Origin: a virus
Taxonomy: Duplodnaviria; Caudoviricetes
IMG/VR virus record: IMGVR_UViG_3300045838_000034
Location: 1 to 27,215 of that record
DNA: 27,215 nt
Reading direction: 5' to 3' (one strand)
Shown here: piece by piece, positions 4,610-25,803 of the stretch
Layout of the letters: the number at the start of each line of letters is the position of its first letter
Position numbering within the stretch: position 1 is the first letter of the stretch
Notes under the pieces: model-generated
The model's database searches: none
What the model was told of the DNA's origin: nothing
What the model saw: only the letters and a program-made list of their open reading frames with translations
Made by a program: the position numbers and the translations under genes

Positions 4610-5044
4610 TCAGACGACGAGCTGCAACCGTGGCTGCACACGCGCACATCTCGCCTGAGCCAGACGCAGATAATCGGGCTGCAAGTCAATGCCGATGGCC
4701 CGCCGGCCCTCCTCCAGCGCCACCATGAGCGTGGTCCCGCTCCCAGCAAAGCAATCGAGGACCGTGGCCGGCACGATGGGGGCGTCTGGGCCGCAGGAGC
4801 AGGTGGGCTGCCAGCCAGTCGTGCTCACAGACACGCCGGCCACGCCATTCGGCATCTTGGTGAACCCGTCATGCCGGCCGCCGCGGTCCCGCTCGCGTGC
4901 ATCTCCATCCGGGCGAGGCCGTGCCAGCGCCAGGCGATCCACCACCCGCCGCCATGGCGCCCCACACTGCACCGCGACCTCCTCGAAATACTGTCGTAGC
5001 TCGGCCGGGATGTCCTTGGGGTCAAAGAGTTGGTCCCCGCACAC
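4610..5044 (-). CDS. C-terminal half of split beta-class DNA methyltransferase A (SAM-binding motif I)
   Basis: CGAPWRRVV...TTGWQPTCSC...VLDCFAGSGTT...GRRAIGIDL. Likely start GTG 5044 with GGAAGGGG RBS 9 nt upstream; the frame is closed upstream by a stop at 5303-5305. Confidence 0.8.
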   Translation of the reverse strand: MCGDQLFDPKDIPAELRQYFEEVAVQCGAPWRRVVDRLALARPRPDGDARERDRGGRHDGFTKMPNGVAGVSVSTTGWQPTCSCGPDAPIVPATVLDCFAGSGTTLMVALEEGRRAIGIDLQPDYLRLAQARCARVQPRLQLVV

Positions 5045-6029
5045 CGTGCAGTGCCCCTTCCCTGGTATCGTGGGACGCGCTATAAGAGAGGCGTGAAAGC
5101 CTGCGCCCACTGCGGTGCGCTCTTTCAGCCCGCGCGCAAGCACCCCAAGCAAAAGTACTGCGGCGCAGCCTGCCGCGATGCGGCCAGAGTCACGCATGTG
5201 ACGCAGCCGTGTAGCGAATGCGGCCGGCCTGTGACGCGCATGAGGAGTCGTGCCCAACAACTGGAGCACGCCTACTGTCGCGCGGCTTGCCGATCTGCCT
5301 GGCTAGGCGCGCACCGTCGCGGGCCAGCGCACAAGCAGTGGACGCGTGTCAGCATCCTGTGTGATGCCTGTGGCGCCCTACTGTGGCGGCAACCAGCAAA
5401 GATCCGCCAGCACAACTTCTGCGGGCCAGCGTGCCGCACGCGGTGGCAGCAAGAGTCCGGCTATACGTCCGGTGCACTGAGCGCCGCGTGGCGCGGAGGC
5501 GCATCACACTATCGCGGGCCGAACTGGCGGCAACAACGCCATCTGTGCTTGCGACGCGATGGGGGTGCCTGCCAGCGTTGCGGTGCGGCCACGTGCGTGG
5601 ACGTGCATCACCGCCGGCCCTCTCAGACGTTCACCTCGCACCTGGAAGCCAATGACCTGTGCACCCTAATCACGCTCTGCACGAGGTGCCACACGCTGGC
5701 TGACGGGGCGTATCGCCGCGCGCATCCCGATGATCCGCGCTTGGTCCCAGCGTGTGAGCGCGTGCACGTGTGCGAGAATTGCGGCGAGCCGTTCATCGCA
5801 CGCGGCCCACGTGCGAAGCGCTGCGACCGCTGTTGGCAGCGCGTCTGCCTGACGTGCGGCAAGATATTCCGTCCGGCGGCATGGCGCGAGGTGGGGCACT
5901 ACTGCTCGCGCGCCTGTGCTGGTACGCCGACTAAGAGGCCAGCCCGCGCCGTCTCAGATAACCCATAACCCTGGCCTGCGCCTCAGGCGTCAGGTCACTG
6001 CGCAGCCTGAGCTTCTTGACCATCGCGCC
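4973..6029. mobile_element. Inferred HNH endonuclease insertion splitting MTase A inside a CxxC motif
   Basis: Removing 4973-6029 in silico restores AGTSEHGVC-VQ-CGAPWRRVV; the interval is filled by the antisense HNH gene. Boundaries uncertain by a few codons. Confidence 0.65.
5093..5968 (+). CDS. HNH endonuclease with multiple CxxC...CxxxC zinc fingers
   Basis: GTG 5093 with GAGAGG RBS; three N-terminal fingers, WRGG...RGPNW...RDGGACQRCG...VDVHH...NDLCTLITLCTRCH core, two C-terminal fingers. TG-G-TATCGT (5063-5071) and TATAAG (5081-5086) upstream. Confidence 0.85.
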   Translation: MKACAHCGALFQPARKHPKQKYCGAACRDAARVTHVTQPCSECGRPVTRMRSRAQQLEHAYCRAACRSAWLGAHRRGPAHKQWTRVSILCDACGALLWRQPAKIRQHNFCGPACRTRWQQESGYTSGALSAAWRGGASHYRGPNWRQQRHLCLRRDGGACQRCGAATCVDVHHRRPSQTFTSHLEANDLCTLITLCTRCHTLADGAYRRAHPDDPRLVPACERVHVCENCGEPFIARGPRAKRCDRCWQRVCLTCGKIFRPAAWREVGHYCSRACAGTPTKRPARAVSDNP

Positions 6030-7904
6030 GCATACCCCATGCTCAGAAGTGCCGGCACGGATCATGGGCCGCACCAGCTCGGGCGGGAAGGCAGCGTAGT
6101 GTTCCACCATGTCCAAGCCGTATTTCTTCGAGGACAGAGGGGCGGTGGCGACGGTCCAGACGGAGCGGGCATTGCGACCGGCGGGGTGCTGACCACCGCT
6201 GAAGCGGGAGGCGTCGCCCGCATGCTGGACGACCAGATGCTTGCCCTGCGTGCGGTAGCGCAGCGCCTCTGTGGTGAACTTGTGCAGGCTGCTGGCGTGT
6301 GGCTCCCTGATCGCGTCCTGGTCGTAGTAGTATCTCGGGCGCCTGGCCAGCATGAACACCGTCTCGTGCGCCCGCGTGCAGCGGTCTTTGACCGACTCGG
6401 GCATGGGATTGGGCTTCGAGTTGGCGGTGAGCACGCCCGAGGCCAGGGCGAACAGGTGTGGCTCATCGGCCACACCGACGTGCCAGAACTGGCGAGCCCT
6501 GGATCGCCGGATGGCCACAACCGTGGCGCGGTCCTTCTCGCTGTGATGGCCTGAGCGCGTCCAGCGCAGCTCACCTCGATAGATGGGCCAGCGCTTGCCC
6601 CATGCCGCCGTACTCGTGGCCTGGAGCGTTAAGGTTGCGCCCAAGCGCGCAGCGAGGGTGCGCAGATCAGCGGCGAGGGCATCGTTGCGCGTGAAGGCAA
6701 GGCGCCAGCGGTCGTTGGCCACGTCCCTGCTGCCATCGCCGGCCAGGTAGCCATCGAGCAAGGCGCGCAAGAAGTCGTCAGAGCGATCCCAGCATGCCGG
6801 CTTGAGGTGCTTCGTGCGGGCCGAGGAGCCGCCCACGTAGGCGTTGACGACGGCATAAGGGATACCGCCCTCAACCTGTATGCTGGCCGCATTGCCACGC
6901 CCGACGTGCGCCCAGACGGTACCATGATACGCCTCGGCGAAGCGCTGGAGCGCCGGCAAGCGATAGACCGTCTGATCGCGATGACCGGCAAAGCGCATGT
7001 GCCTGAACCGGTTGCGGCTTCCTTCAGCCAGATACAAGCCGCAGACCCAGCCGACGAGGCGGTCATCAAGTGCTTCGGGGCTTGCTGCCGCGGGCTCGGG
7101 CAACCGGCACGTCTGCAAGACATCGCCGACGCGTAGGTCGTCGGCCCGCACGAGGCCGCGCTGCGTCGGCCACTGGTGATGGCCGGTACAGCCGATGCGC
7201 TCACCACTGCGCAGCTCTATCTCAAGCGCGCCTTCGCGGTCTTCAGCGCGAGACCAGCCCAGCACCTGCGTCCAGCACTCGCCGGTCCAAAGTTGGACTG
7301 TCTCCGGCCGCAAGCGGACGAGATCCTTGAGCGTGATGGGCATCTCGCCCTTTTGTGTCTTGGCGTAGACGCGGGTGCCACCGGATAGGCACCAGATAAT
7401 CTCCGACCGCACGATCCAACCAGCTTCCTGTAGCGCAAACGCTACTTTCCACGGTGCGCCCAGGAGCTGCTTGTCAGGGCCGAAGCCATCGCCAAGAACC
7501 AGCCAAAGAGTCCCATCGTCTCTGAGAACTCTTTTGACTTGGCCGAAGACCTCTACTAGTATTCTAACATAGTCGTCAAGAGTCTTCTCATGCCCTATCT
7601 GACCGTCCGCTTGGTAGTCGCGAAGATTCCAATATGGAGGACTCGTACAACAGCAGTGCACGCTGTGCTCAGGCAACGTCGCAAGAACCTGCCGTGCGTC
7701 GCCGCAGAGCAGCCGCAGAGCGTCGTCGCAGATGGCCGTGCTCCTCCGAGAACGAGGGTCTGCTGTGCGCCGGGCCGGGGCAGGGACCGCCGGCCGGGCG
7801 CGCGGGGCGGCCCTCGCCGACCACGCCACCGCGCGCTCCAGCGGACGGCTGAGGAGGGACACGCGCCGCACGCGCACCCCCAAGAGGAGGAGCCGCCGCG
7901 GCAT
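5931..7904 (-). CDS. N-terminal half of split beta-class (N4C/N6A, SPPY) DNA methyltransferase A, intein-containing; true start probably near 7733
   Basis: GDARQVL...TSPPYW...GTLWLVLGD...IIW/SKPNPMPES...HETVFML...RSVW...HYAAFPPEL; lacks motif I (FxGxG), which lies in 4610..5044. Confidence 0.88.
   Translation of the reverse strand: MPRRLLLLGVRVRRVSLLSRPLERAVAWSARAAPRARPAVPAPARRTADPRSRRSTAICDDALRLLCGDARQVLATLPEHSVHCCCTSPPYWNLRDYQADGQIGHEKTLDDYVRILVEVFGQVKRVLRDDGTLWLVLGDGFGPDKQLLGAPWKVAFALQEAGWIVRSEIIWCLSGGTRVYAKTQKGEMPITLKDLVRLRPETVQLWTGECWTQVLGWSRAEDREGALEIELRSGERIGCTGHHQWPTQRGLVRADDLRVGDVLQTCRLPEPAAASPEALDDRLVGWVCGLYLAEGSRNRFRHMRFAGHRDQTVYRLPALQRFAEAYHGTVWAHVGRGNAASIQVEGGIPYAVVNAYVGGSSARTKHLKPACWDRSDDFLRALLDGYLAGDGSRDVANDRWRLAFTRNDALAADLRTLAARLGATLTLQATSTAAWGKRWPIYRGELRWTRSGHHSEKDRATVVAIRRSRARQFWHVGVADEPHLFALASGVLTANSKPNPMPESVKDRCTRAHETVFMLARRPRYYYDQDAIREPHASSLHKFTTEALRYRTQGKHLVVQHAGDASRFSGGQHPAGRNARSVWTVATAPLSSKKYGLDMVEHYAAFPPELVRPMIRAGTSEHGVCGAMVKKLRLRSDLTPEAQARVMGYLRRRGLAS
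6420..7391 (-). mobile_element. Intein with LAGLIDADG homing endonuclease (324 aa)
   Basis: Starts CLSGGTRV after IIW; block B CTGHH; LAGLIDADG motifs GLYLAEGS and DGYLAGDGS; ends LASGVLTAN followed by +1 Ser; removal restores IIW-SKPNPMPES. Confidence 0.92.
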
Positions 7905-7932
7905 CAGGCGGCGCGTGAGCGGTCCTGATGAC

Positions 7933-8103
7933 TCAGGCGTCCTCGTCCAGGTCTAGGTCCTGGTCCTCGTCGCCCGACGGCGCAGGGGGCAACGGGGCAT
8001 CCGGCGCTGGGGCCGGTGGCGGGACGGGGTCATCCTGTGGGGGCCAGCCGCGCTGGTCTTGCTCGTCAGCGGGATCGATCAGCAGGAGCGCACTCATGCT
8101 CAT
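7933..8103 (-). CDS. Small Pro/Asp-rich hypothetical protein (56 aa)
   Basis: ATGA overlap with the 8100 stop; MSMSALLLIDPADEQDQRGWPPQDDPVPPPAPAP...DEDA. Not in the ORF track. Confidence 0.5.
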   Translation of the reverse strand: MSMSALLLIDPADEQDQRGWPPQDDPVPPPAPAPDAPLPPAPSGDEDQDLDLDEDA

Positions 8104-8624
8104 GCACGACCCCCTGCTCCCTGTCCCCCAGAGACGCCCCCTGCGGCGGGCGCGCCGCTCGTTGCGGCCTGGTACGCCTCGGGCGGGTTCTCAGGCACGT
8201 CCGTCTGCGGGGTCCCGACGAGGGAGCCGCGCTGGTTCATGCCCCTGAACTCTTTCTCAGCCAGCTCCTTGCCGCGCTCATTCCACCACTGCGCCTCGCC
8301 ATTCTCCAGTTGCTCCAGGCCCTCCTGCGCGACCTTTGAGGCCGGGGCGCCGCCGATAGAGGCGATGTGCAGCTCGCCGAGCACGCGCCGAGCCAGCTCC
8401 AGGCCGTAGTGGTTGACGTCGGCCGCCAGGCGGGCCTTGAACTGATCCAGGTTGACCGTGGGCGGCTCGGGCAGGTGCTCCTGCTCGTCATCCGCGCGGC
8501 TGTCGGGCCCAGCTACCGACTGTATCGCCTCGCTGGCCGGCTGGTCCGCGCTCTTGCCGCCACGGCCGGACTTGCCGGTCCCCTTGTCCTGCTGCTCTGT
8601 CTGTGTGGAAGGGTTGTCGGACAT
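8100..8624 (-). CDS. Acidic hypothetical protein (174 aa)
   Basis: AAGGAG RBS before ATG 8624 (MSDNPSTQ...); the upstream part of track ORF 8100..9086 merely overlaps the connector gene. Confidence 0.7.
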   Translation of the reverse strand: MSDNPSTQTEQQDKGTGKSGRGGKSADQPASEAIQSVAGPDSRADDEQEHLPEPPTVNLDQFKARLAADVNHYGLELARRVLGELHIASIGGAPASKVAQEGLEQLENGEAQWWNERGKELAEKEFRGMNQRGSLVGTPQTDVPENPPEAYQAATSGAPAAGGVSGGQGAGGRA

Positions 8625-8649
8625 GATGCACTCTCCTTCGACGTCGACG

Positions 8650-9450
8650 TCACACGAACTGCGGTGCAGGCGCCTTCTTGTAGCGCCCCAAGATGCTCGC
8701 TGCCTGCTGCGCGAGCGCGCTTCCGAAGCCCAGTGCGGCCCCCGCTCCGCTGCTCCCCAGAGAAGACCCCTGCAGGGGCCGGTAGCTCTCGCTGCGCTCG
8801 CCCACGCGCACGCTTTGCAGGATGCCGGCGAAGGGCTGGGCGGCATTCGCGTTCTGCGCGGCCTGGACCGCCAGGGCTTCTTGCGCCAGCAGCGCCGCCG
8901 CATACTGGATGTCTTTGGGCACGGGATCGGCCCCGTAGCTCCCGCCGCCGGGCGCGCTCGGATCGCCGATCGCGCTCCACCCTGCGGCGTAGGAGGCGAT
9001 GTAGCCGATGCCATGCAGGCTCGGTGTCGTGGCGTATTGAAAGCCGACGCCGGCCAGGGCATCCACAAAGCCCGGCGCCAGCGCAAACAGACGCCCGGTG
9101 CTATGCTCGACCACGACCGAGTCCAGCGGGATGTCCGTGGGCGTGGTCAGCGCGAGGGCGTAGGTCAGTTGCAGCGTGGTGAAGATGGCCGTGGCTGCTC
9201 CTGGGACGAGCGGACGGTGGACGAGCTCAATCAGGTAGCGCCCGGCGTACGGTCCAGCACCCAGATACGTCGCCGGCCCCTCTTCGTTGCTGTGGAGGCT
9301 CAAGGAGGGACGATAGCGCAAGTAGCGCTCGATCTGGGCCTCCGTTGCGGCCAGCAGGGGGAGCAGGTAGGCGTCGGGGTATGTGGTGGTGTTCAGGACG
9401 TCCGTGCGGTTGCTCAGGGCGGCCAGTGTCGCACGGTCTAGCAGGCTCAT
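8650..9450 (-). CDS. Head-tail connector (adaptor, HK97 gp6/SPP1 gp15-like)
   Basis: LLAATEAQIERYL, YAAGW...VPKDIQYAAALLA, SVRVGERSESY, ILGRYK motifs; located after capsid genes. Confidence 0.8.
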   Translation of the reverse strand: MSLLDRATLAALSNRTDVLNTTTYPDAYLLPLLAATEAQIERYLRYRPSLSLHSNEEGPATYLGAGPYAGRYLIELVHRPLVPGAATAIFTTLQLTYALALTTPTDIPLDSVVVEHSTGRLFALAPGFVDALAGVGFQYATTPSLHGIGYIASYAAGWSAIGDPSAPGGGSYGADPVPKDIQYAAALLAQEALAVQAAQNANAAQPFAGILQSVRVGERSESYRPLQGSSLGSSGAGAALGFGSALAQQAASILGRYKKAPAPQFV

Positions 9451-9453
9451 GAG

Positions 9454-10815
9454 CTAGCTCGGGGCAACAGGGCGGGCAATGACGGCGAATATGTCCACGT
9501 GGCCCTGTGTGGGGTCCGTGCCGCCGGTCTGCGCAAGTTGAATCTGCACGGGGTCCGTTGACGCAAAGACCCGCGCGCACACGCTCTGCTCGGGCTGACT
9601 GGTCGCGCGATACTGGTCAAAAGCGATCACGTCGGTCGTCTCGTCCAGCGCTGACGATAGTCCCGCAGCCCCGGCCGGGAGCACCAAACGCGCGGCATGC
9701 GTCCCCTCCCACGTTGTGGGCTCGTCCGCGCCATCAGCCCACGTCCGCCAGCTATAGACCGTTCCGCTCGCCGCAAAGCGTGTCCAATAGGCGTGCCCGG
9801 TCGTGCCGCCGGCCCACGTCGTCGTGATCGTTTCCGTGTCAGTTCCATCAAAAATCCCGAGCGTCGCCTGACCGTTAAGAGAGAGGCGCAGATACGCCCA
9901 GCGTTTACCAGGACCGGCGCCCGCTGATGGATCATACCCGGCAGTGCGCATGAGCATGACAGGCCCAATGTCTGTATTTCCATTTCCTGATGTCAGCGTC
10001 CAGCGCACGAGCGCCGTCACATCAGCGCACGTGAACGGTGCGCCCAGGAAGAGTGCGTCTGTTTGCCCATACGGCGCAGCCCCCGTCTGCGTCCCCTTGT
10101 CTGAGCTGAGCGCGTCGGTGTTAAAACCACCGACAGCAGTCCAGGGACGACCATCCGCTGCGCTGCCCCAAGTCCCCGCATCTGCGCGCACAAACGTGTC
10201 CTGACGTAGTTCTGGTCCGACCACGCTGCGGCCACAGACGAGCAGTCCATGGTCGAAGGGGATGCAGGAGAGCGGATCAGCAAACAAATGCACCAACACA
10301 TCCCCCGCCTGCGGGGTCCACAGTGTCACCGTGTGGCCCTCCATGGGCGCGGGGCCAAAGTCGGTGTAGTCCACGACGTAGGGGCCGTAGAGCGTGGGAG
10401 CGCCCGCCGGAGCCGGCACGGCGCGCTGCTGCACCGGCAGGCTGCGCCAGCCGCTCTGCTGCACCGTCGCGGCCGTGATGTGCCCACTAGAGACCGTGAT
10501 GGCCGCCACATCCAGGGCCGTCGCCGTGGGAGCCGAGGCGACCACGGACCAGACCGGCTGGTAATTGCCGCCCACCTCCTGGTAGTCCAGCCACAGCGTG
10601 TAACTGCCATTGGTGGACAGCCCGCTCAGGTGCGTGCTGGCCAGCTCGTCGGCCAGCACCGTGCCATCGGGCAGGACGGCCCACGCAGGCGGGGTGATGG
10701 TGACGTCGAGCTGGGTCAGCAGCCCGCCGTGCGCGGCGCACGTGATGCCGCTGTGGCCCTTGACGCCCAGCGCCGCCAGCATGGCCCCGGCGCTCTTGCT
10801 CTGGAAGGAAGTCAT
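9454..10815 (-). CDS. Putative head decoration/fiber protein with inserted beta-sandwich domain
   Basis: 453 aa, Thr/Gly/Trp-rich, between capsid and connector; internal segment DTFVRADAGTWGSAADGRPW...FDQY has visibly lower GC. Confidence 0.55.
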   Translation of the reverse strand: MTSFQSKSAGAMLAALGVKGHSGITCAAHGGLLTQLDVTITPPAWAVLPDGTVLADELASTHLSGLSTNGSYTLWLDYQEVGGNYQPVWSVVASAPTATALDVAAITVSSGHITAATVQQSGWRSLPVQQRAVPAPAGAPTLYGPYVVDYTDFGPAPMEGHTVTLWTPQAGDVLVHLFADPLSCIPFDHGLLVCGRSVVGPELRQDTFVRADAGTWGSAADGRPWTAVGGFNTDALSSDKGTQTGAAPYGQTDALFLGAPFTCADVTALVRWTLTSGNGNTDIGPVMLMRTAGYDPSAGAGPGKRWAYLRLSLNGQATLGIFDGTDTETITTTWAGGTTGHAYWTRFAASGTVYSWRTWADGADEPTTWEGTHAARLVLPAGAAGLSSALDETTDVIAFDQYRATSQPEQSVCARVFASTDPVQIQLAQTGGTDPTQGHVDIFAVIARPVAPS

Positions 10816-10818
10816 CGG

Positions 10819-14397: not shown

Positions 14398-16440
14398 TCA
14401 GACTCCCGCCTCCTGGTTGGCCGCGGCGAAGAGCGGCCCCGTCTGCTGCTCCTGCTCATAGGCCACGCGCCGGCGTGCGATCTCGACGTAGCTCTCTTGG
14501 GCATCGATGCCAATGAAGTGCATCTGCTCACGCACGCACGCGACGAGGGTGCTGCCAGAGCCGCAAAATGGATCAAGAATAGTGCCGCCAGGCGCACAAA
14601 CGAGACGGGCAAGCCAGCACATGAGGGTGAGTGGCTTCACGCACGGATGGCTATTTTGCCGCGGTGGCGACGGGTTGCGCGGATAGCCGCCATCGGGATG
14701 TCGTGCATCCTCGATCCACTCAGAGGCGATGAGGTTGCGCGTTGTCTGGTCCGGGCAGGGCATCCCGTCCAGGCCCCTGTTGCGCTCAGCCCTGCTCGCC
14801 TTGGGGCAGTACATCCAGGGCACGGCGTCCTCAGGGTCTGGGGCGAAGGTGGGAAAGTAGCGGCTTGGCCCGCCCTCATCCCCATAACCACCCGCAGACG
14901 CTGAGACTTGCTGCCGCCCGGCCGTATACATCCCCTGCCCGCCCCACGTGGCTGTGCGTCGGATCATAGCCGTGCCGCCCGTGCTCGTGCGCGGTCCCGC
15001 TTGCTCATCCAACAGACGAATTGGGCAGGAGGGGTCACAGGAGTAGGCTGGCACCTCTTCGTAGCCATCGGCGTCGGCGAGTTGGATGCTGCGCTCGCCA
15101 TTGCGGCCGGCACTCTGGCCGAAGGTGCGATCATCTTTGCCGTTGGGGAACACAGGTTGAGGGACGGGCTTGCTGCCCCGCACCCGGCGCGTGCCCTGCG
15201 GCACACAGCGCTCTGTGTGGCTCAGCAGCGTGTTTGGGGGCCATCTGCCCGCCCCTGAGCCGCTGACCGTCGCCCCCTCTGTCAGGCGTTCCTTCCAGGG
15301 CCGTTCTTCCGCGGCAAAGCTACTGGTAGCAGAGACAGTGCGCGTCCAGGCCCCTTCGCCCGTGGGCACCCGGCACGCATCAATCTGCAAGGGCTGCAAG
15401 GGGCCGGGGGCTTTGGCCAGCCACCATATTTCGTGGGCGGGACCGTCAGATGAAACGCCCTCCCGTCCGTTCGCGGCCCTCTGCGACGTGCTGTCCGTTG
15501 CGCCGAGCGAACCCGCTTGCGCGATAGCACTCCTTGGAGCAGAAAGTGTTTGGATGGCGCTCCACTTCAACGATGCGGCGATCAACAGGCTGTCCACAGC
15601 ACAGACAAGCGACCGTTGTCCATCGTGCCCTGACACGGCCTGGATGATGCTGTCTGGTGTGATTTGCGATAGCGAGGAGTTCAAGGTTTTCAAGTCTGTT
15701 ATCAGACTTGATGCCATTTCGATGGTGGACGTGCTCATTGCTTCGCAAAGGCCGTCCCAGGTGCTCCTCCATGACGACACGATGTTCAAGCTTGTACGTT
15801 CGGCGGTCGGTTGCGATTGCAACGTATCCGCTTGCAAGTTGGTAACGCTTTGCCACAGCCCCTCCTCAAGCTCGCCAATCCTCATACTTATTATAGCATG
15901 GAGGTCTGGCATACTCAAGGGATTCTGTGCGCACCACCACGTTTCATGTGCGGGCTTAAGACAAGACTTACTTTTCGGAAATCCCGATCCGAAGAGGTGG
16001 AGGTAGCGAGAAGAGCCTTTGAGGTGGCTAATCTCGTCCCTAATCTCCCAGCCGGCCTCTTCCAGTGCCAGCGCTGTCCAATGGCTGGTGCGCGGGAGAG
16101 CCCAGACGAGGGCATAGCCGCCCGGCTTGATGACACGGCGGCACTCCGCGAAGATCTCAGCCAGTCCGGCAATGAACGTGTCCCGTGCCCTGCGGCCAGA
16201 GTCGATGTGCATGCCGTTGGCAAAGCCGCGCTCGTGGGCGTGGGCGGTCTGCTGACTGTTGCCGGGCACGCCGCGCAAGGGGCCGCGGTCACGCAATGGG
16301 AAGGCTTGGGGCCGGTCCCAGTCTTTCCCCATGAAGGCGATGCCGGCCGGCGGATCTGTGAGCAGAGCGTCACAGGAGGCCGTGGGAATGTCCTTGAGCA
16401 CGAGCGCGGCATCACCGCACAGCACCACGTCACGCTCCAC
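14398..16440 (-). CDS. Beta-class DNA methyltransferase B (DPPA motif IV) with 171-codon in-frame insertion
   Basis: [55 protein letters not shown] motifs; GAGGTG RBS. Confidence 0.9.
15446..15856 (-). CDS. HNH endonuclease (136 aa) nested in an alternative frame inside MTase B
   Basis: GYV...[37 protein letters not shown]...H intact HNH motif plus C-terminal CxCCG...FCSKEC finger; GAGGAGG RBS before GTG. Confidence 0.9.
15890..15918 (-). promoter_or_regulatory. Consensus sigma-70-type promoter for the nested HNH gene
   Basis: TTGAGT (15918-15913), 17-nt spacer, TG-C-TATAAT (TATAAT at 15895-15890), 33 nt upstream of the HNH start. Confidence 0.8.
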
Positions 16441-16612: not shown

Positions 16613-17431
16613 TTAGCGCGTGCACAGCGCATCCACCTCCAGATCATGGGCCGCGCTGTGGTCATCGTTCTGCGCCACGATCGCCCAGCCCTGCCCCTGT
16701 GCCGTCTGGAGGGGAAAGGAGGCCAGCACGGCTAAAGCCTCGTCGCCCAGGTGATAGCCGCCCGAGACGATGGTGCGGCCGGCCGGACACAGCACCGTCG
16801 CGACGTCGCACTGGGACGGCGGGCGGCGCTGTCCGCTGACGCCCGGCGCCTGACGCCCGACGCCTGCTGCCGTGCAGCCCGCGGCCAGGGTCATGGTCGC
16901 GCTCACCTGCTGCACGCCGGCGATGGCGCCGGGTGGTCCCTGTGGCCCGGGATCACCCTTGGGGCCCCCAGGGCCGGGGCTGCCCGCGACGCCCTGTGGC
17001 CCCGCAGGGCCAACAACGCTCGCCCCTGGTGGCCCAGCAGGACCAGCAGGACCGGGCAGGCCTTGCGGACCCACAGAGCCAGAAGCCCCGGCCGGGCCAG
17101 GAGCACCGGGTGTGCCCTGTGGCCCCCGTGATCCCTGCGGCCCTTGCGGCCCCTGCTGGTTCCAGGTGATCGCGCGCTGACCGGCTGGGCAGCGCAGCGC
17201 TGCCCCCTGCCCCCCTCCCCACGCTGCGCGCGGGGTCCCCGCTGCCCCCTGGTTGGGCACGGTGTCGACGAGGTGCAGCAGGCGCGGGGAGCGCACGCCG
17301 TAACAGGCGCGGATCAGGGGCGGGCTGCCTCCCCTTCCCCTGAGCGCGGGCGACGCTGCGGAGGCCACACAGACATAGGTGGCGGCGCTGATGGCCACTG
17401 TGGCGCACACACCCCAAGAGAAGCGCAGCAT
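16613..17431 (-). CDS. Collagen-like protein with signal-peptide-like N-terminus
   Basis: Runs of 15 + 10 Gly-X-Y triplets; hydrophobic N-terminus; Cys-containing flanking domains; AAGGAGAGGA RBS. Confidence 0.85.
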
Positions 17432-18287: not shown

Positions 18288-20111
18288 CTGCACCGCCAGC
18301 GCCCACGCGTCATCGTCGTCGGCGGATGCCCACTGCGCGTAGGCCCGCGTGAGGCGCTCCACGTCGCTCTGCTCTGGCCGCGCGTGGACGCGCAGTCTCC
18401 TGGACGGGTCGGACGTCTGGGCCGGCGATCCGGCAGCTCCCGGACTCCGAGGAGGACCCGATGCCCCATCCGCGCTCGCACGAGATGCGGCATCAGAGGC
18501 ATCTGCTTTCGCGCTGGGGAGCAGCCACAGCGGAGGCGTCTGGCGTGCGGCGTGCGGCGTGCGGGGGTGCTCCAGCTGGCGGCGGCGCTGGTCGTGGCGC
18601 GCAGATGGCGAGAGGAGGGCCGCCGGGTAGCTTTTCGCTCCGGCCCTGGCGGCGTGCTCGCTCTTGCCGCTGCGCGGCTCTGGAGCCGTCTGAGGGACTC
18701 CTGCGGCCCCTCGCTGCGCTGCCGCCGGCTGCTGTCTGGGCGCGGGTGCCGCAGCAGCGGGAGCGGGAGCGGGTTGGCCCAACTCGGTCACCTGTGGTGC
18801 CGGTGGCAGCTCCTCTGGCGCCTCCTGCAGCTGCTCCCCGAGCTGCGCGGCTTGCTCGGGCGAGAGGAGCGTCATCCCCTTGGGCAGCGGGATCAGCCCG
18901 CCCAGCTCGTCGTCGTCGGGCAGGGGATCATAGCCAGCGCTGACCCGCAGGTCGTTGACGCTGAAGGCGCCCGTGCCGGCCAGTTTCGCCGCGGCATCGG
19001 CACGCATGGCGTAGTCGATGACCTCGCGCTGCTCGTACTCGGCGCGCAGGCCGGGGTCGAACAGCTCAAGCAGCGGGTTCCAGAAGTCCTCTTCGAACTG
19101 CCGCAGGATCGGGGCGAGGGTCTCGCCGTAGAAGAACTGCACGGCCTCCTGTGCGTTGCGATAGTTGGACTCGGAAAAGCCCGAGCCGCCGAGCAGCTGG
19201 AGCGGCACGCCGAAGAGCTGGGCGATGTCGTCCAGGCCCATCTTGACCAGGTCGGCGATGGGCACGCGCCCCAGGGGCTCCTGAATGGGTGTGTAGGAGG
19301 CCCCGGCCCACAGCAGCGCCGTGCGTATCTTGTTCCGGGCGCCCTCACGCATGGCCCGCCAATCCGCGACGAGCGCGCGTCTGTCCTCTTCGGGGATCTC
19401 GCCCGGCGTGGTCAGCACGCCGTCTAAGATGGCCCCCCGCGCAAAGAAGTTGAGCGCGAACTCGTTGACCAGGCGGTCCTTGCTGAACGTGAGCTCGCCG
19501 CCCTCGATCGTGCCAAACCCCCACAGCGGATCGGTCGGATGGGCCAATTTGACGTGCAGGACGGAGTCGCCATCGTACCAGATGGTTTTGGTGGTCCGGT
19601 TCGCTTCCACGTCATAGCCGTAGGCCAACTTGCCCACGTCAGAGCGGATGATGTGCAGCTTGTCGGGGCGCAGGACGTAGAGCTCGGTGGGCCGGCCCAG
19701 TCCGTCGTCGTTGTCCAGCAGCACGACGGCATTGCCCGTGAGCTGGAGATGGTGGCTGAGGATCTGGCGGAAGTGCCGGCCGCGCATCTCGGGGTTGGGC
19801 CGGCGCAGGAGCGCGTCGAACTCCGGCAGACGGTCTTTCGGGTCAACCTCGTTGTCGTCCTCGTCGAGGAGGTGGAGCTGCGTCGCGGAGAAGGTGTTGG
19901 CGATGAGGGCCAGACACTTGTAGACGTTGGGGATGGTGATGGCGCCCAAGTAGGACTCATAATCCTTCATCCGCTTGGCGGACGAGGGATCCAGCGTCGA
20001 GAGGTACGTGAGGGCACGCGCAGCGGCAGGCACAGCGTTGCTGTCGCCCCGGCCAAAGAGGCGCGCTTTGGCGCCATCGGCCAGCCCTGCAAACTGTGCA
20101 GCCAGTCCCAT
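18222..20111 (-). CDS. Portal protein (HK97 family) with long low-complexity C-terminal extension
   Basis: VYKCLALIANT, LLRRPNP, LTGNA, LRPD, VLHVK...GFG, IAQLFGVP, SNY, SVNDLR...GYDPL motifs. Confidence 0.93.
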   Translation of the reverse strand: MGLAAQFAGLADGAKARLFGRGDSNAVPAAARALTYLSTLDPSSAKRMKDYESYLGAITIPNVYKCLALIANTFSATQLHLLDEDDNEVDPKDRLPEFDALLRRPNPEMRGRHFRQILSHHLQLTGNAVVLLDNDDGLGRPTELYVLRPDKLHIIRSDVGKLAYGYDVEANRTTKTIWYDGDSVLHVKLAHPTDPLWGFGTIEGGELTFSKDRLVNEFALNFFARGAILDGVLTTPGEIPEEDRRALVADWRAMREGARNKIRTALLWAGASYTPIQEPLGRVPIADLVKMGLDDIAQLFGVPLQLLGGSGFSESNYRNAQEAVQFFYGETLAPILRQFEEDFWNPLLELFDPGLRAEYEQREVIDYAMRADAAAKLAGTGAFSVNDLRVSAGYDPLPDDDELGGLIPLPKGMTLLSPEQAAQLGEQLQEAPEELPPAPQVTELGQPAPAPAAAAPAPRQQPAAAQRGAAGVPQTAPEPRSGKSEHAARAGAKSYPAALLSPSARHDQRRRQLEHPRTPHAARQTPPLWLLPSAKADASDAASRASADGASGPPRSPGAAGSPAQTSDPSRRLRVHARPEQSDVERLTRAYAQWASADDDDAWALAVQSASAQRDDSPHQAGDEAAPDR

Positions 20112-20114
20112 GCG

Positions 20115-21401
20115 TTATCCCCACGTAATCCGTGCCGGCGCCGGCGCACTCAAGATGAGCTCATGCAGCGCCCACACCAGCGCGTCGAGCCGGCCCGGAC
20201 TGTAGCCGTCCAGGGGCGTCCAGCTGCACACTTGATTCTCCAGCGCCGGCAGCAGGCCCACGTGATGGACCTTGCCCTGCATCGCCAGCACCGCGCACGG
20301 CTCGGCCCGGACGACCTTGCCCCGGCTGGCCTGCACGAGCTTGAGGCGTGGCCGGCAGCCCATCTCTTTGGCCGCAGCCTGGATCGTGCTCTGCACCATC
20401 TCGCCGCCGAAGTTGGCCTCGGCCACGATGGCGTCGGCTTTGTGCGCCTCATAGGCCGTGATCGCTCTGGCCGCCCAGTCGTCAGGCCCCAGGTGCGCTG
20501 AGAGATCGGCGAGCACGTAGGCCTGCCCGCGCCCGTCGCAGCCGCAGACCACGATGCCCACTTCGTCGCCCCTGCGGCTCCCAGAAGGGTCCAGAGCGAC
20601 GACGACGCGCACCAGGGGCGGCACCGCGTCCGGCCGGATGCGGCTCGTGTCGATCCACTCCCGTGACCATAAAGCGCCCTCGTTCTCAGCCTCGAAGAGC
20701 GCGAGGATCTCCTGGCGGTAGACCCTTGAGGGCAGGTCGCGCTCCAGGGACTCCAGCTCAGCGCGGCTGATGTGCGGGTTCGTGGCCGTGGGCATCTGCC
20801 AGGAGGCCCAGTCCGGATAGGCGTCCGACTGGCCGTACTGGTACAGGGTGTGATAGTCGTTATAGCCTTTGGGCGTCGAGAGGAACCACGCATCACCCGC
20901 GTAGTCGGCGAGCGTGCTCCTGATGACCTGGTTCCAGGCGTCGAGCAGCCCCGGCACCATCGCCGCCTCGTCGATGACCGCGCGCTGATACTTGCGCCCA
21001 CGCGCCACATCGGGCGAATCGAGGCTCCACATGTCGAGCACGCCACCGGTCACCAACTCCAGGCGGTGCTCCGCGGCATTGGACCGGGCGATGGCCGGCC
21101 GAAGGGTGCGCACCACCTCGCGCCATAGGTCGGTCATCATGCCATACGTCGGGGCAAAATAGGCCACCGGCCGCCCCTGCAAAGCAGGACCGACGAGGCG
21201 GTTGATGCCGAGCGTGGACTTGCCCCACCTTCTTCCGCAGCAGACGACACAGTTACGCCGGCTCTGGCTGATCACCTCCCGCTGCGCTGGGTGGGGGCGC
21301 GGCAAGTGCAAGGTCAGGTCCCGCTGCCTCTGGTGGGCCGGCGACGCTTTGGTCTGGGGCATCCTGGTCGTCGTAGACGACGCGCACGTTGAGTTGGACA
21401 A
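20115..21401 (-). CDS. terL: Terminase large subunit (start may be ATG 21362)
   Basis: Walker A GRRWGKS, Walker B AVIDEAA, STP coupling motif, nuclease VALDPS...EANFGG...RLDAL. Confidence 0.95.
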   Translation of the reverse strand: MSNSTCASSTTTRMPQTKASPAHQRQRDLTLHLPRPHPAQREVISQSRRNCVVCCGRRWGKSTLGINRLVGPALQGRPVAYFAPTYGMMTDLWREVVRTLRPAIARSNAAEHRLELVTGGVLDMWSLDSPDVARGRKYQRAVIDEAAMVPGLLDAWNQVIRSTLADYAGDAWFLSTPKGYNDYHTLYQYGQSDAYPDWASWQMPTATNPHISRAELESLERDLPSRVYRQEILALFEAENEGALWSREWIDTSRIRPDAVPPLVRVVVALDPSGSRRGDEVGIVVCGCDGRGQAYVLADLSAHLGPDDWAARAITAYEAHKADAIVAEANFGGEMVQSTIQAAAKEMGCRPRLKLVQASRGKVVRAEPCAVLAMQGKVHHVGLLPALENQVCSWTPLDGYSPGRLDALVWALHELILSAPAPARITWG

Positions 21402-21852
21402 GGTTGTTCTGCACGTCGGGCCGCTCCAGCCCGCACAGCTTGCACAGCGCCTGCGTGGCCTGCACGATCACCCGCAAGTACTCGCTCTTCTGGCTTCTGA
21501 ATTGCTGCTGGGTCTTGCGCTCCACTCTGGCCCCGTCGACGGGGTCGGGCACCTGCACCTCAGACGCGAACTCGCCGGCCAGCCAGCGCCGCTCGTTCTC
21601 CTGGTCCTGCTCGTGGTCCCGCCAGGCCTGGTCGATGACGCGCTGGTACTGGGCGATGGCCAGACTGAGCGCCCGGGTGTGCTGCTCGGCGGCCCAGTGC
21701 TCCAGTTGGCCGTTGATGATCTTGAGATCGCGGGCCAGCGTGCGCTCGCTAATGCCCATCTCACGGCGCAACTGCGCGTAGGTGTGGCCGGCGATGACGT
21801 GCTGGAGCAGCAGCGCACGGCGTGCTGTCTGCTCGGCTTTGGAAACGTTCAT
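21253..21852 (-). CDS. terS: Terminase small subunit
   Basis: N-terminal HTH (GHTYAQLRREMGISERTLARDL), helical middle, KLCGL motif; overlaps the terL start. Confidence 0.75.
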   Translation of the reverse strand: MNVSKAEQTARRALLLQHVIAGHTYAQLRREMGISERTLARDLKIINGQLEHWAAEQHTRALSLAIAQYQRVIDQAWRDHEQDQENERRWLAGEFASEVQVPDPVDGARVERKTQQQFRSQKSEYLRVIVQATQALCKLCGLERPDVQNNLVQLNVRVVYDDQDAPDQSVAGPPEAAGPDLALAAPPPSAAGGDQPEPA

Positions 21853-21906
21853 GCTCTCGAAGGGTGTGCGCGTGCGCGCGAGGGCAACTGCGCCGATTAG
21901 GGACGA

Positions 21907-22287
21907 TTAGCGCCCGCCATCGCTCCTGCACTCCAGCGCCGTGGGTGTCCTGCTCGCGCTGGTCGGCTCCAGCATCGTGCGCAGCCGCACCAGCGCCTGC
22001 CGGTGCAGCTTGCTGCCCCTGCTCTTGAGCCCGCCCCAGCGCTTGGCACCCTCGCTCAGCTCGTAGCCGCCCCAGTAGTGCAGCCAGATGACGGCACGCT
22101 CACGGTCCTCCTCCGTGGGTCCGCCTTTCTGCCGCAGCTCCAGGATGCGCACGGGCACCATGAAGGACAACCAGGCGCGCAGTCGGGCCGCGCGCTCGTT
22201 CTCCTGCGCGTAGGCCTCCCACCAGCGCTGCTGCTCGTCCCAGCCGATGCGCCGGGCTATCCGCTCCGCCTCCGCCGTCTGGGCCAT
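21907..22287 (-). CDS. Protein with sigma-70 region-4-like C-terminal HTH
   Basis: RERAVIWLHYWGGYELSEGAKRWGGLKSRGSKLHRQALVRLR resembles FliA/WhiG-type region 4; no region 2. Confidence 0.55.
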   Translation of the reverse strand: MAQTAEAERIARRIGWDEQQRWWEAYAQENERAARLRAWLSFMVPVRILELRQKGGPTEEDRERAVIWLHYWGGYELSEGAKRWGGLKSRGSKLHRQALVRLRTMLEPTSASRTPTALECRSDGGR

Positions 22288-22293
22288 GGCGAG

Positions 22294-22551
22294 CTAGGGC
22301 CGGCCCAGGCCCAGGACGAGCGCGATCAGCACGCCGCCCAACGCCCCCCCCAGCACACCAGCCAGGGGCCAGAGCAGAGGCACCAGGCGAGACGCGTGCC
22401 GCCTGGTGCGATAGGGCAGCGTGTCCTCCAGCAGAACACGGGGATGCGCGTGCATCCAGCAGATCAGCCGCCACTGCTCCAGCGGGGAGAGGGCGCTAGG
22501 GGATAGGGGATAGGCGTGAGGACGTGCTGCGTCAGTCCTGCGGCGTCTCAT
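22294..22551 (-). CDS. Hypothetical protein with C-terminal TM helix (85 aa)
   Basis: TGATG coupling at 22551; ends LVPLLWPLAGVLGGALGGVLIALVLGL. Confidence 0.55.
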   Translation of the reverse strand: MRRRRTDAARPHAYPLSPSALSPLEQWRLICWMHAHPRVLLEDTLPYRTRRHASRLVPLLWPLAGVLGGALGGVLIALVLGLGRP

Positions 22552-22652
22552 CAACGCTCCACGAGCCACAGCACGAAAGCCAGGAACGCGAGGAGGCCCA
22601 GGAACAGCGCGCCATACAGGACCATCTCGGCCCCGCTCAGGGTCTGGGCCAT
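22551..22652 (-). CDS. Small single-TM peptide (33 aa)
   Basis: TGATG overlaps at both ends; MAQTLSGAEMVLYGALFLGLLAFLAFVLWLVER. Confidence 0.6.
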   Translation of the reverse strand: MAQTLSGAEMVLYGALFLGLLAFLAFVLWLVER

Positions 22653-22972
22653 CACTCGTGCCTGGGCTCCTCATTCCAGTGGCTACCCTCGCCATGCCCT
22701 CTGCGCTGCTGCGCCTCATGGCTGGCATGCACCCGCTGCGCCTCGGCCAGGCTGTTCTGGGCCTGCGCGATGTGCCCTTGCACGCCTTTGGCCACTTCAG
22801 CCGCCGTCTGGTGCTCTTTGCGCTCGTGATGCTTGGCCGCTTCCCTGACGCGGTCGGAGGCCTCGTCGAGGTGCTTGGCGGCACGGTGCAGGTGCGGCAC
22901 TGACGGGTGACTGTCGCCGCTCGCCGCTCTCCTGTCGCCTGACGCCTGACGCCTGTCGCCTGGTGAGGACAT
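22652..22972 (-). CDS. His/Ala-rich helical protein (106 aa)
   Basis: GGAGGT RBS before ATG 22972; HLHRAAKHLDEA...EAAKHHERKEH pattern. Confidence 0.7.
   Translation of the reverse strand: MSSPGDRRQASGDRRAASGDSHPSVPHLHRAAKHLDEASDRVREAAKHHERKEHQTAAEVAKGVQGHIAQAQNSLAEAQRVHASHEAQQRRGHGEGSHWNEEPRHE
22911..22962. repeat. Tandem array of seven 7-bp units inside a CDS
   Basis: ctgtcgc cgctcgc cgctctc ctgtcgc ctgacgc ctgacgc ctgtcgc. Confidence 0.85.
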
Positions 22973-23171
22973 GGGCACCTCCAAAGGGGCCGGCGGGCGT
23001 GCTCTCGGCAGTCAGAAGAAAAAACCCATCACGTCAGCTCCCCGCCCCTACCCGTTGTCTAGGAGCACAGAGCAACGGCCCCACACAGCCGGGGGCGGTG
23101 TCCTTGATGGGAAAAAGGCGCACGCAGCCTTTTCTAGGTGAGGACGTGGGCACCTCCAAAGGGGCCGGCGG
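22962..23171. repeat. 35-bp direct repeat (22962-22996 and 23137-23171, one mismatch)
   Basis: ggtgaggac[a/g]tgggcacctccaaaggggccggcgg. Confidence 0.95.
23111..23134 (-). terminator. Intrinsic terminator-like hairpin (possibly bidirectional) in the late leader
   Basis: Minus strand GAAAAGGC-tgcgtgc-GCCTTTTTC. Confidence 0.5.
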
Positions 23172-23204
23172 TGGCCTGCACCGCAAAAAGGGTACAAGCG
23201 TCCT

Positions 23205-23265
23205 AGCGCCAGTGTACGACAATGTTTGCAGTATTCGTAATTTATCTCGGCCCCTGTCGCAATCT
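23205..23265 (-). promoter_or_regulatory. Putative late-operon promoter
   Basis: AT-rich patch; minus-strand TACACT at 23216-23211 with TTACGA 18 nt upstream; precedes the packaging/morphogenesis genes. Confidence 0.5.
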
Positions 23266-23512
23266 AGCGAAAAGACTTCCAGGTGCGGTCGGCCTGGCGG
23301 GCCCCCTCCGACCAGGGGCGGCCGCGGCGCTGGCGGCTGCGGAGCCGATACGTACACTCCTGCGAGCACGTGCGGTAGTACTGCTGGCACCAGGGGACGA
23401 TGAGGAAGGGTGCACCGCAGATGGCGCACGTCTTCTGGATGCGCCGACCCGGGATGCGCGCGGCCACCGAGGGCGGGGTGCGGTCAGGGGGCGCTGCTGT
23501 GGCTGCGGTCAT
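23264..23512 (-). CDS. Small protein with a single CxxC...CSxxC zinc finger (82 aa)
   Basis: ATGA coupling at 23509-23512; KTCAICGAPF...RTCSQEC. Confidence 0.6.
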   Translation of the reverse strand: MTAATAAPPDRTPPSVAARIPGRRIQKTCAICGAPFLIVPWCQQYYRTCSQECTYRLRSRQRRGRPWSEGARQADRTWKSFR

Positions 23513-23736
23513 CGTTTTGCTCCGTCGGTCGTGCCCTCGTCGCCCGCGCGGTACTCCCAATCGTCCAGCGGGTGCTCCAGGAACGCCCGCAGCGTCGCCA
23601 CGTAGACGCGCCCACACAGCGCGCACAGGCTGACGTGTGGGCCGTAGGGCGGTCCGATGGCCACGGGCACGCGGACCTGGCCGTGCCCGAGCTCCTCGTG
23701 GCAGCGCGCGCACGCGCCTTTGTCCGCGGGCATCAT
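23509..23736 (-). CDS. Small Zn-binding hypothetical protein (75 aa)
   Basis: CARC...CALC; GGAGGT RBS; ATGA coupling on both sides. Confidence 0.65.
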   Translation of the reverse strand: MMPADKGACARCHEELGHGQVRVPVAIGPPYGPHVSLCALCGRVYVATLRAFLEHPLDDWEYRAGDEGTTDGAKR

Positions 23737-24302
23737 GACGCCACCTCCTGCTCGGCCTCTGGGTGCGGCTCCTGGCTGCTCCTGGTGAGCACGTCTCCCA
23801 GATAGCGCACTGCGTCGCCCAGGCGGCGGCTAAGTGTCGCTTCCGACATGCCCCACTCCTGGGCAATCTCCTGGCGCGGCACACGCTCGAAGACCAGCTT
23901 TGTGATGAGCCACGCCCAGGCCGGCTTGACGCGGCGCATCTGATCCAGGGCGCGGTGCAGGAGAAGGCCATCGAGGTGCGCGACCCAGCGCGGGCGCATG
24001 TCGAGATGCGTGATGTGGCCCCGGCGATCACGCTCGTCGTCGTACATCTTGAGGAAATCGGCCAGGCGCTGTGGGCTGATGCGCCACTCTGTGCGGTGCT
24101 GCGGGTCGGGAGCGCCGGCCCAGTAGCACCGCTCGCGCCGCGCGTTGTGGTCCCGCAGGCGTGCGGTGCGGGCATCGTCGCGCTGCCGGCACGCACTGCA
24201 CAGACAGCGGCGGATGTGCGGGGCCAACTCCAGGGGGTCGATGCTGACGGCGACGATCTGGTGTTTGCCATAGCGTCGGCGGCGCTTTTCCTTCGCTCCC
24301 AC
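23733..24302 (-). CDS. Sigma-70 region-4-like HTH regulator (candidate late activator/antiterminator)
   Basis: LHRALDQM...PRQEIAQEWGMSEATLSRRLGDAVRYL; AAGGAG RBS; located upstream of the late promoter. Confidence 0.7.
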   Translation of the reverse strand: MGAKEKRRRRYGKHQIVAVSIDPLELAPHIRRCLCSACRQRDDARTARLRDHNARRERCYWAGAPDPQHRTEWRISPQRLADFLKMYDDERDRRGHITHLDMRPRWVAHLDGLLLHRALDQMRRVKPAWAWLITKLVFERVPRQEIAQEWGMSEATLSRRLGDAVRYLGDVLTRSSQEPHPEAEQEVAS

Positions 24303-24305
24303 GGC

Positions 24306-24425
24306 TCAACTCCTTTCCGGCACGAGCTCGGTGACCTCCAGGCGCACGGCGCGCTCCGGCCCGGTCTCCTGCCGCACCACTAACTCCACGTGCTCCGCGT
24401 CATCGTCAGCTAGGTTAAGACCGTC
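24306..24425 (-). pseudogene. Stranded original 3' end of rusA
   Basis: DGLNLADDDAEHVELVVRQETGPERAVRLEVTELVPERS aligns without gaps from LA onward to the RusA tail LAEESSAYCDVQVHQEQGKERAIRVEVCELL; no start of its own. Confidence 0.75.
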
Positions 24426-25267
24426 TCCCAGTTGGGGATAAGAGCCCTCCACCTGGCAATGGCCTTGTAAGCGTCCTCGTCGATGACGACAATGCGCACC
24501 TGCGGATAGTAGCGCGCCATGCGCGCAAGCGCGGTCTTGCCGCGCGGATGGTGCCATCCCTTTACCTCCCAGTAGTACGGCTCGGAGCCGGGCCGCTCAG
24601 TAATGCGAAAATCCGGCGTATACGAGCGCACACCGCGCTTGATCTCCTCGAACCAGAAGGTCTCTGCCTCGTAAGCCCACTCAGCGATGTCGCCGCGCTC
24701 CTTCAACCAGTTGAGGTAACGGGCGATGTTGGCTTCCCAGGATGAGCGGAAGTACATGTTGCCCAGATCGGGCCGCCGACCGCCGCGGCTGCGACTGTGC
24801 GCGCTGCGCAGGCGTGGATCGGTGAGGTGCCGCTGGCTCATCAAATCGCTCTTCCCCTGCACAAAACCCGGATCGGCATACAGACAAGCGCGTGAGCAAT
24901 GCAACGTCGCCGCTGCATGACTGCGCTTGACGAGGAGCAGCGCGCCACAAGTACGGCAAGCAACCTGCACTCTCTTGGCGCGTGCAGCCAATGAACACGC
25001 CCTGGAACAATGGGCCGCTCTCGCACGCGCCGTGGTGACGACCCACGTGCAGCCGCAGGTTGGACAAACACGCGTGCCGCGGTCCTTGGGCTGCCTGGCC
25101 ACCCTCTCCTTCGAATCCCACGCACAGCGCCGTGAACAGTATTTGCGGCTGCTCGTGACGACGACCTGGAAGACGACAGCGCACTGCAAACAGGTCAGCG
25201 TCTTGCGCGGGAGGCTAAGCTTAGCCTTGACTTCAGGGGGGCAGGGAACGCCCTTAGGCCAGGGCAT
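24410..25267 (-). CDS. Zinc-finger PD-(D/E)XK endonuclease (homing-endonuclease-like)
   Basis: Likely ATG 25267 (AGGTG RBS); NUMOD3-like GVPCPPEVKAKLS, three CxxC...CSxxC fingers, FRSSWEAN...YTPDF...EVKG nuclease motif. Confidence 0.85.
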   Translation of the reverse strand: MPWPKGVPCPPEVKAKLSLPRKTLTCLQCAVVFQVVVTSSRKYCSRRCAWDSKERVARQPKDRGTRVCPTCGCTWVVTTARARAAHCSRACSLAARAKRVQVACRTCGALLLVKRSHAAATLHCSRACLYADPGFVQGKSDLMSQRHLTDPRLRSAHSRSRGGRRPDLGNMYFRSSWEANIARYLNWLKERGDIAEWAYEAETFWFEEIKRGVRSYTPDFRITERPGSEPYYWEVKGWHHPRGKTALARMARYYPQVRIVVIDEDAYKAIARWRALIPNWETVLT

Positions 25268-25392
25268 CGCGCACCTGCCCACGAGGCGACAAGATACAAT
25301 GGGGATGCATGCGGACCTCCAGCGTCCGTGTGCCGCGCCGGCGGATGTTCGCACCATCGCGCCGGCTACATCATAGAGGGCTGTGTGACGCC

Positions 25393-25422
25393 ATGGTAAC
25401 ATGGACACGTCCCTCATGTCTA
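25393..25422 (-). promoter_or_regulatory. Putative promoter of the PD-(D/E)XK gene
   Basis: TAGACA, 18-nt spacer, TG-T-TACCAT immediately after the rusA stop. Confidence 0.45.
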
Positions 25423-25425
25423 TCA

Positions 25426-25803
25426 CTACAGTAGCTCGCACACTTCAACGCGTATTGCTCGCTCCTTGCCTTGTTCTTGGTGTACTTGTACATCGCAATA
25501 AGCGCTAGACTCTTCGGCGAGAACACCGGCGTCCACCAATCCCAAGATCGGCCCCTTCGCCCTGCTGTACACATTGTCAGGGTCCAGGGGCGACTGCCCG
25601 CGCCGCCGCACAAGAGTCACGCTCACGTGCGCCCGCTCAAAGGGCGGCCCGCTGTGTTCCTGCTTTGCGAGCAGGGCGAACGCATCGCGGTAGACGGTGC
25701 GATCACGGGCCACGCGCGTCCAGTGCAGCCCCCGTGTCTGGTTGATGCCCAGGGGCTGTCCTCTGACTTCGAGCGTGTACTGGCGCGCCGGCCGCTCAGC
25801 CAC
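25426..25803 (-). CDS. rusA: RusA-like Holliday junction resolvase with recoded C-terminus
   Basis: PLGIN...HW, LDPDN, AK...GLVDAGVL and terminal IRVEVCEL motifs. Confidence 0.8.
   Translation of the reverse strand: MAERPARQYTLEVRGQPLGINQTRGLHWTRVARDRTVYRDAFALLAKQEHSGPPFERAHVSVTLVRRRGQSPLDPDNVYSRAKGPILGLVDAGVLAEESSAYCDVQVHQEQGKERAIRVEVCELL

Follow-up and report, generated by a model that had tools for sequence, protein, structure and literature searches.

Nuclease-bearing insertions in a tailed-phage contig, one of which divides a methyltransferase between a basic tail and an acidic leader peptide

Results

We analysed the virus contig IMGVR_UViG_3300045838_000034 (Caudoviricetes). The window is the entire contig of 27,215 nucleotides (nt); it encodes terminase, portal, protease and capsid genes and is of the type of a tailed phage or prophage with high guanine-plus-cytosine (GC) content. 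Soil metagenome runs contain its sequence, and two of these runs are possible sources of the contig. A preliminary description, made from the letters alone, had placed three nuclease genes inside conserved genes, and all three open reading frames (ORFs) were indeed found at the positions it gave. Those at 5093-5968 (plus strand) and 15446-15856 (minus strand) encode HNH nucleases (PHROG 1271; Pfam HNH_3), whereas the one at 24410-25267 (minus strand) combines zinc fingers with a PD-(D/E)xK-type domain and is not HNH (PHROGs 190/218/9019). Their host genes encode an N6_N4 methyltransferase in each of the first two cases and a RusA-like resolvase in the third. We refer to the insertions, in order of position, as elements (b), (a) and (c). 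Contigs of run X1 showed 0-1 differences from the window pieces around sites (a) and (b). The absence of a group I or II intron, claimed at the outset, was borne out: an Rfam scan of the window gave 0 matches up to E=1, no intron core was found in the non-coding sequence of the inserts (0, 48 and 158 nt), and the tRNA and intron scans of the window were both empty.

Element (b) lies in methyltransferase 1, where the following features were found.

4610-5044, minus strand: C-terminal piece of methyltransferase 1 with S-adenosylmethionine (SAM)-binding motif I (PF01555 profile 184-220); the 144-amino-acid (aa) protein P0001
4967-5044, minus strand: acidic N-terminal leader of 26 aa, element-borne, with a GTG start and a Shine-Dalgarno (SD) sequence, in frame with the second Cys
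5081-5086, plus strand: degenerate -10 box, 6 nt upstream of the nuclease start
5093-5968, plus strand: antisense zinc-finger HNH nuclease, sharing 38 nt with the tail and without the first finger that its relatives have
5931-6029, minus strand: basic C-terminal tail of 32 aa, element-borne, after the first Cys of the host CxxC
5931-7904, minus strand: N-terminal piece of methyltransferase 1 (catalytic SPPY motif, intein, tail; PF01555 profile 1-81 and a later stretch)
6420-7391, minus strand: LAGLIDADG intein of 324 aa (C...N, then S)

The element spans 4967-6029 and its split point separates the two Cys of the host CxxC motif: methylase 1 runs on for 32 residues past the first Cys before it stops, and its second piece starts 26 residues ahead of the second Cys. 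Two separately started pieces with added terminal peptides had been proposed here, and this is what we found. Intact homologs carried GTSExGxCxxCGAPW in 9/9 viral loci. Furthermore, contigs of runs X1 and X3 join 4970/4967 to 6049 with 21-24 other letters; these joints are empty alleles of related genes from the same sample. Since SPPY is on the N-terminal piece and the SAM motif on the C-terminal one, neither piece of methylase 1 can work by itself, given what is established for beta-class methyltransferases.

The intein noted earlier is present; it lies in this gene and is of the LAGLIDADG type, and protein P0045 carries a related one. A split intein at (b) itself could be ruled out: no match to Hint halves was obtained, the peptides are only 26-32 aa long, and the final leader residue varies (Q/T/P/E), with no conserved terminal Asn/Gln before Cys/Ser/Thr. 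Between the IGHE motif and the intein (7391-7700) lies a low-GC patch (0.54) with an antisense promoter-like site (9/12) at 7534-7562 on the plus strand. This patch coincides with the second split site of locus L015, described below, and possibly marks where an element was lost, or else a co-conversion tract of the intein.

The added peptides proved to be conserved. The tail profile gave 69 matches, from which 26 repeat proteins with many short stretches were dropped; in all 43 remaining single-copy matches the tail lay at most 8 aa from the C-terminus. The CxxC site accounted for 38 of them and another site for 3, the last 2 being fragments. PF01555 was matched by 32/39 scanned tail proteins, and all classified hosts of the pair are N6_N4 methylases. 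Among 95 matches to the leader profile 79 had the leader, which was within the first 25 aa in 78 of these 79 and acidic in 78; SPPY occurred in none of the leader-bearing proteins. A pattern search for the leader yielded 11 metagenome loci (GC 0.48-0.62; L010 and L018 are near-identical) and 0 loci each among viral and GTDB sequences. An antisense zinc-finger ORF, truncated in one case, was located upstream in 10 of the 11, the last having just 180 nt of upstream sequence, and the tail was visible in all 5 loci that extended far enough. Tail charges ranged from +2 to +9 and leader charges from -3 to -7. The conservation is one of protein sequence and spans 43 clusters (<50% identity) with GC from 0.48 to 0.73. 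The nuclease C-termini that overlap the tail, in contrast, are not conserved, which locates the constraint in the tail frame. Searches of PDB and Atlas returned no homolog of either peptide. As to expression of the nuclease, a -10 box stood 5-7 nt ahead of its start in 7/10 family members, compared with 58/1635 background starts, a placement that likely points to a leaderless mRNA.

Homologous peptides are present at four methylase sites, together with HNH or Vsr-like nucleases. At L015:1403-4585 a single methylase is in three pieces, with two antisense nucleases and charge-reversed peptide pairs; its second split, near the IGxE motif, holds a different antisense HNH gene, an acidic tail (-5) and a basic leader. 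Protein P0106 has a basic leader at its N-terminus, at a further site. A tblastn search of a phage collection with the tail matched 82 mycobacteriophage records weakly (best E 0.4), mycobacteriophage methylases alone being among the matches listed. Matches in phiKp_32 and in nrdB of RpoS-V10 were rejected, being weak, internal and outside methylases, and 2 of 15 viral pattern matches (L178 and L187) were unrelated. In the four phages inspected (Seagreen, Kari, KilKor and ShiLan) a ShiLan-family methylase is split at ERPS/AHPT with a clearly homologous tail and leader. The first three have an antisense zinc-finger Vsr-like nuclease at the split, and L183 has the same pair and nuclease type. ShiLan gp65/66/67 is split with the peptides and without a nuclease there, the pair having persisted after nuclease loss. 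The leader junction was covered by 85/124 records (duplicates included); the others match in the host part only, as in the empty phage Wee.

Protein P0187 is a natural fusion of tail and leader in one chain. Its AlphaFold model (mean predicted local distance difference test 74, predicted template modelling score 0.50) is strand-helix-helix-strand. It contains two strands in total, one from each half, which suggests that the halves pair.

In the occupied mycobacteriophage-type loci the stop of the leader ORF falls within a 7-nt insert (20/20), which is absent from the empty loci (3/3). The insert has the form ACC-stop-N-ACC/GCC (e.g. L167:2428-2600, L170:2868-2990, L183:2867-3010): in L183 matched ACC codons stand on both sides of the stop, in the other loci ACC and GCC. 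A hairpin end coincides with the first ACC, and one compensatory pair distinguishes L183 from the rest. The arrangement looks like a small-scale counterpart of the T4 gene 60 bypass, which protects the MobA target. With only three sequence variants at hand, a short programmed ribosomal hop is possible; a separate GTG start with an SD sequence is an alternative. In element (b) of the window the leader is in frame and the insert is absent.

Element (a) lies in methyltransferase 2.

14398-16440, minus strand: methyltransferase 2 (ShiLan methylase family, by homology), a single open frame of 680 aa
15442-15954, minus strand: ShiLan-type insertion of 171 codons that opens with a low-GC copy of the PAHE motif lying downstream
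15446-15856, minus strand: HNH_3 nuclease, out of frame, with SD GGAGG upstream of GTG
15890-15918, minus strand: sigma70-like promoter (10/12, extended -10; promoter scan), encoded within host-frame codons

The host frame runs uninterrupted for 680 codons over the out-of-frame HNH gene, as had been noticed. This is not rare in itself, since the frame also stayed open in 3783 of 5000 shuffles of synonymous codons in the HNH gene, and we rejected the open frame as proof of selection. All 16 phage records matching this HNH at E<=1e-15 sit within methylase genes, among them ShiLan gp65 (45.9%, E 5e-20), and the insertion is at the ALK/P site, as in ShiLan. Among 43 viral homolog loci of methylase 2, L028 has an insertion at this same site, L027 an overprinted antisense HNH gene at a different one and L056 an HNH carried within an intein, while L022 and L024 are short-loop empty alleles. 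A -10-like box and an SD sequence before a later start codon were clear in the window, Cr-LKS3 and L027 and weaker in ShiLan, Pollywog and L028. Judged by its sequence, element (a) is a homolog of the ShiLan domain with the host frame kept open, and it likely loops out as an inserted protein segment. Upstream of it, at 15955-16060, we observed a low-GC stretch (0.52) with about 8 additional residues before HLFGSG; L056 has an intein there, and the stretch may be a scar or a co-converted flank. Open host frames over antisense inserts occur at other methylase sites as well (L027:671-2893; P0187 residues ~40-270), which amounts to the ShiLan trick in antisense orientation, with HNH shown for L027.

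Element (c) lies in the RusA-like gene.

24306-24413, minus strand: displaced original RusA 3' end (first residues LADDD), host-like GC, without a start of its own
24410-25267, minus strand: zinc-finger and PD-(D/E)xK-type nuclease (profile search)
25393-25422, minus strand: sigma70-like promoter (9/12, extended -10; promoter scan), immediately past the new stop
25426-25803, minus strand: RusA-like resolvase gene with a low-GC replacement 3' end at 25426-25522 (EE replaces DD)

The claimed replacement end is there and comprises 32 low-GC codons. The duplication scored 75, whereas the highest score among 416 shuffled pairs was 56. Whether it repairs the gene is another matter. The expressed end has LGL and EE where relatives keep DGL and DD; two phage relatives, like the displaced end, retain the DD pair. 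DxD and Lys are present (E. coli numbering mapped by motif alone); together with the DD pair they make up the RusA metal site (PMC1636454). The change from DD to EE makes functional repair doubtful. Element (c) brought a recoded, likely cleavage-resistant end, with the nuclease cut site likely at the DD/EE codons; this end may have cost RusA its activity, leaving the repair nominal. Among 100 analysed loci of nuclease (c) relatives, 84 had an upstream ORF and were testable, and none of the other 83 showed a credible 3'-end duplication. L084 scored 62, above the null maximum, and was rejected by eye as low-complexity shadow ORFs. At L082:1340-2430 a relative is fused in frame to the RusA C-terminal end behind a 20-codon RusA-like 5' stub, and there it has destroyed the rusA-like gene.

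Empty alleles, which the idea of splicing-independent insertion had predicted, were thus seen for (a) and (b); no close one was seen for (c), the RusA query having given 0 viral loci. No contig joint across (a) or (c) was found in four metagenome runs. Of the promoter signals described for all three nucleases, those before (a) and (c) were confirmed. As two promoter-like sites were found against shuffle means of 1.1 and 0.4, their weight rests on position and not on number. The window further encodes one more methyltransferase, the third, of the MT-A70 family, along with a collagen-repeat protein (3790-4368, 16613-17431).

Discussion

We consider it probable that the three insertions are unrelated, likely homing elements and that, at (b), the basic tail and the acidic leader reassemble the split methylase without splicing. 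Nuclease (b) would be made from its own leaderless antisense transcript and would cut empty alleles, the element being copied by repair. In the products, the tail strand would pair with the leader strand in one small domain, and the docked peptides would rejoin the methylase 1 pieces to an active enzyme with neither RNA nor protein splicing.

A more far-reaching proposal, which we hold tentatively and to which we would give rather less than an even chance, is that the pair constitutes a portable non-splicing clasp. It would be a split domain existing in charge-swapped, orthogonal versions, which unrelated homing nucleases would bring into no fewer than four sites in two methylase families. The strand-helix tail and the helix-strand leader would form the domain, three-piece enzymes being allowed. 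In mycobacteriophages the domain would be coupled to a programmed 7-nt ribosomal hop after the hairpin, and phage translational bypassing would then exist in two natural kinds.

Several points weigh against reassembly at (b). It is uncertain where methylase 1 starts: the homology sets in near 7730, and at 7730-7760 there is a strong SD sequence (near 7745) but no in-frame ATG/GTG/TTG behind it. A clear canonical start is lacking, and the start is possibly non-canonical or decayed. The promoter of nuclease (b) is decayed in this genome, where its copy fails the family's -10 rule and the window scan found no sigma70-like promoter, the degenerate -10 alone remaining. In the mobE-split nrdA of phage Aeh1 the tails are reported to be unnecessary for binding between the halves (PMC3045599), so docking may not be the main role of the (b) peptides. 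Phage methylases of this type are dispensable according to PMC11855218, and selection for repair may thus be weak. The fold model is that of a relative's fusion, uncontrolled and of moderate confidence, with strand pairing deduced from DSSP. Finally, the host tree of 38 occupied and 16 empty genes, whose interspersed states (14 label changes compared with 13.8 in shuffles) favour the main reading, is weakly resolved (4/51 branches starred) and does not distinguish repeated gain from loss.

Some of these points would fit split methylases that are simply dead, with peptides conserved only through travel with a recently spreading element or through overlap with its promoter and nuclease end. The methylases are accessory, the start of methylase 1 is uncertain, the tail overlaps the nuclease 3' end, and in mycobacteriophages the HPTVKP motif after the leader is broken by a stop and a frameshift in 20/20 occupied loci read. 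We nevertheless find this unlikely, because the peptides are conserved as proteins in 43 clusters with both pieces open, their complementary charges swap jointly, and the pair is still there, or occurs fused, once the nuclease is gone. Somewhat less likely still is that the peptides rebuild a zinc site or the methylase dimer interface with no mutual clasp. The split inside CxxC, a likely partner CxC on the C-terminal piece and the Aeh1 tails, which rebuild the NrdA tetramer (PMC3045599), speak for it, but the same pair occurs at non-CxxC sites of another family and also directly fused. The single toolkit with a shared mechanism and full repair of each host, as first proposed, is very improbable: it correctly drew on the low-GC upstream copies of the duplicated motif at (a) (0.57 vs 0.69 downstream) and (c) (0.51 vs 0.68), with the nuclease promoter in or right after them, but the elements comprise three nuclease families at three host sites with no common sequence or peptide, and credible duplications are confined to one nuclease (c) locus, with a destroyed rusA-like gene in another and EE for DD in the window. 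On the sequence comparisons, the three are co-residents and not one toolkit.

Parts of this picture have been published. The published ShiLan domain (PMC11855218; Arsenault, Gosselin, Gogarten 2025) shares with (a) the methylase family, the site after K of ALKP, a homologous HNH, the open host frame and a 5' copy of a downstream motif. It differs in having 202 codons instead of 171, an N-terminal finger and another 3' junction. An Asn/TAAC ending before Thr/Ser and two flanking zinc fingers were not seen in (a); as the paper itself gives exceptions to the ending, we file (a) as a homolog or variant of ShiLan. The paper sees no ribosome-binding site and proposes a start 18 bp in, whereas in both window (a) and ShiLan itself a later GTG is preceded, at a conserved position, by an SD sequence and a -10-like box.

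Work on mobE and MobA has likewise described the strategy of added tails seen at (b). Aeh1 nrdA also has an ORF-splitting nuclease, a basic C-tail and an acidic N-tail without splicing; its tails are thought to have arisen de novo and are required for NrdA activity and the tetramer, not for the heterodimer (PMC3045599). There, however, mobE occupies one site on the same strand, while (b) has an antisense nuclease and a pair reused at several sites. For MobA of T4 genes 39/60, the preprint (bioRxiv 2022.08.31.505936) describes C- and N-terminal extensions kept after nuclease loss, secondary fusion, a split metal site, a recoded host segment (HomR), VSR replacing the nuclease, and a target-protecting bypass cassette. 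Extensions kept after nuclease loss, fusion, the metal-site split and the nuclease swap to a VSR type recur in the (b) family. MobA, though, is exclusive to one Topo2L site with a 50-nt bypass; the window element is bypass-free and its mycobacteriophage relatives have the 7-nt insert. The hosts of (b) are methylases at four sites, not Topo2L or nrdA at a single one. Element (b) thus seems to work like the mobE/MobA tail elements without being a member, given its other hosts, antisense nucleases and reusable pair. Element (c) is a single case of the strategy known in MobA as HomR.

Like element (c), fungal mitochondrial homing endonucleases that replace 3' ends (atp6, rps3) place the new end before the nuclease and the old one behind it. 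Element (c) differs from them in its phage RusA-like host, its PD-(D/E)xK-type nuclease and its altered acidic pair. No description of the methylase peptide pair or of the hop was found in the literature, subscription papers and supplements lying mostly outside the search.

What would be new is that the (b) peptides form a widespread module and that this module serves at more than one site. Tails as a possible general third route, beside introns and inteins, by which mobile nucleases reside within genes were put forward by Crona et al. and in the MobA preprint, on single-site cases only. The present family, apparently moving between sites and nucleases, includes occupied, empty, nuclease-lost and fused states, and with many members in cultured Mycobacterium smegmatis phages it makes the general-tail idea directly testable. 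The predicted heterodimer pair of ~30 residues, with its charge-reversed twin, is a candidate tag for split-protein engineering. The family would also account for many annotations of a 'truncated methylase + hypothetical protein', including ShiLan gp65-67.

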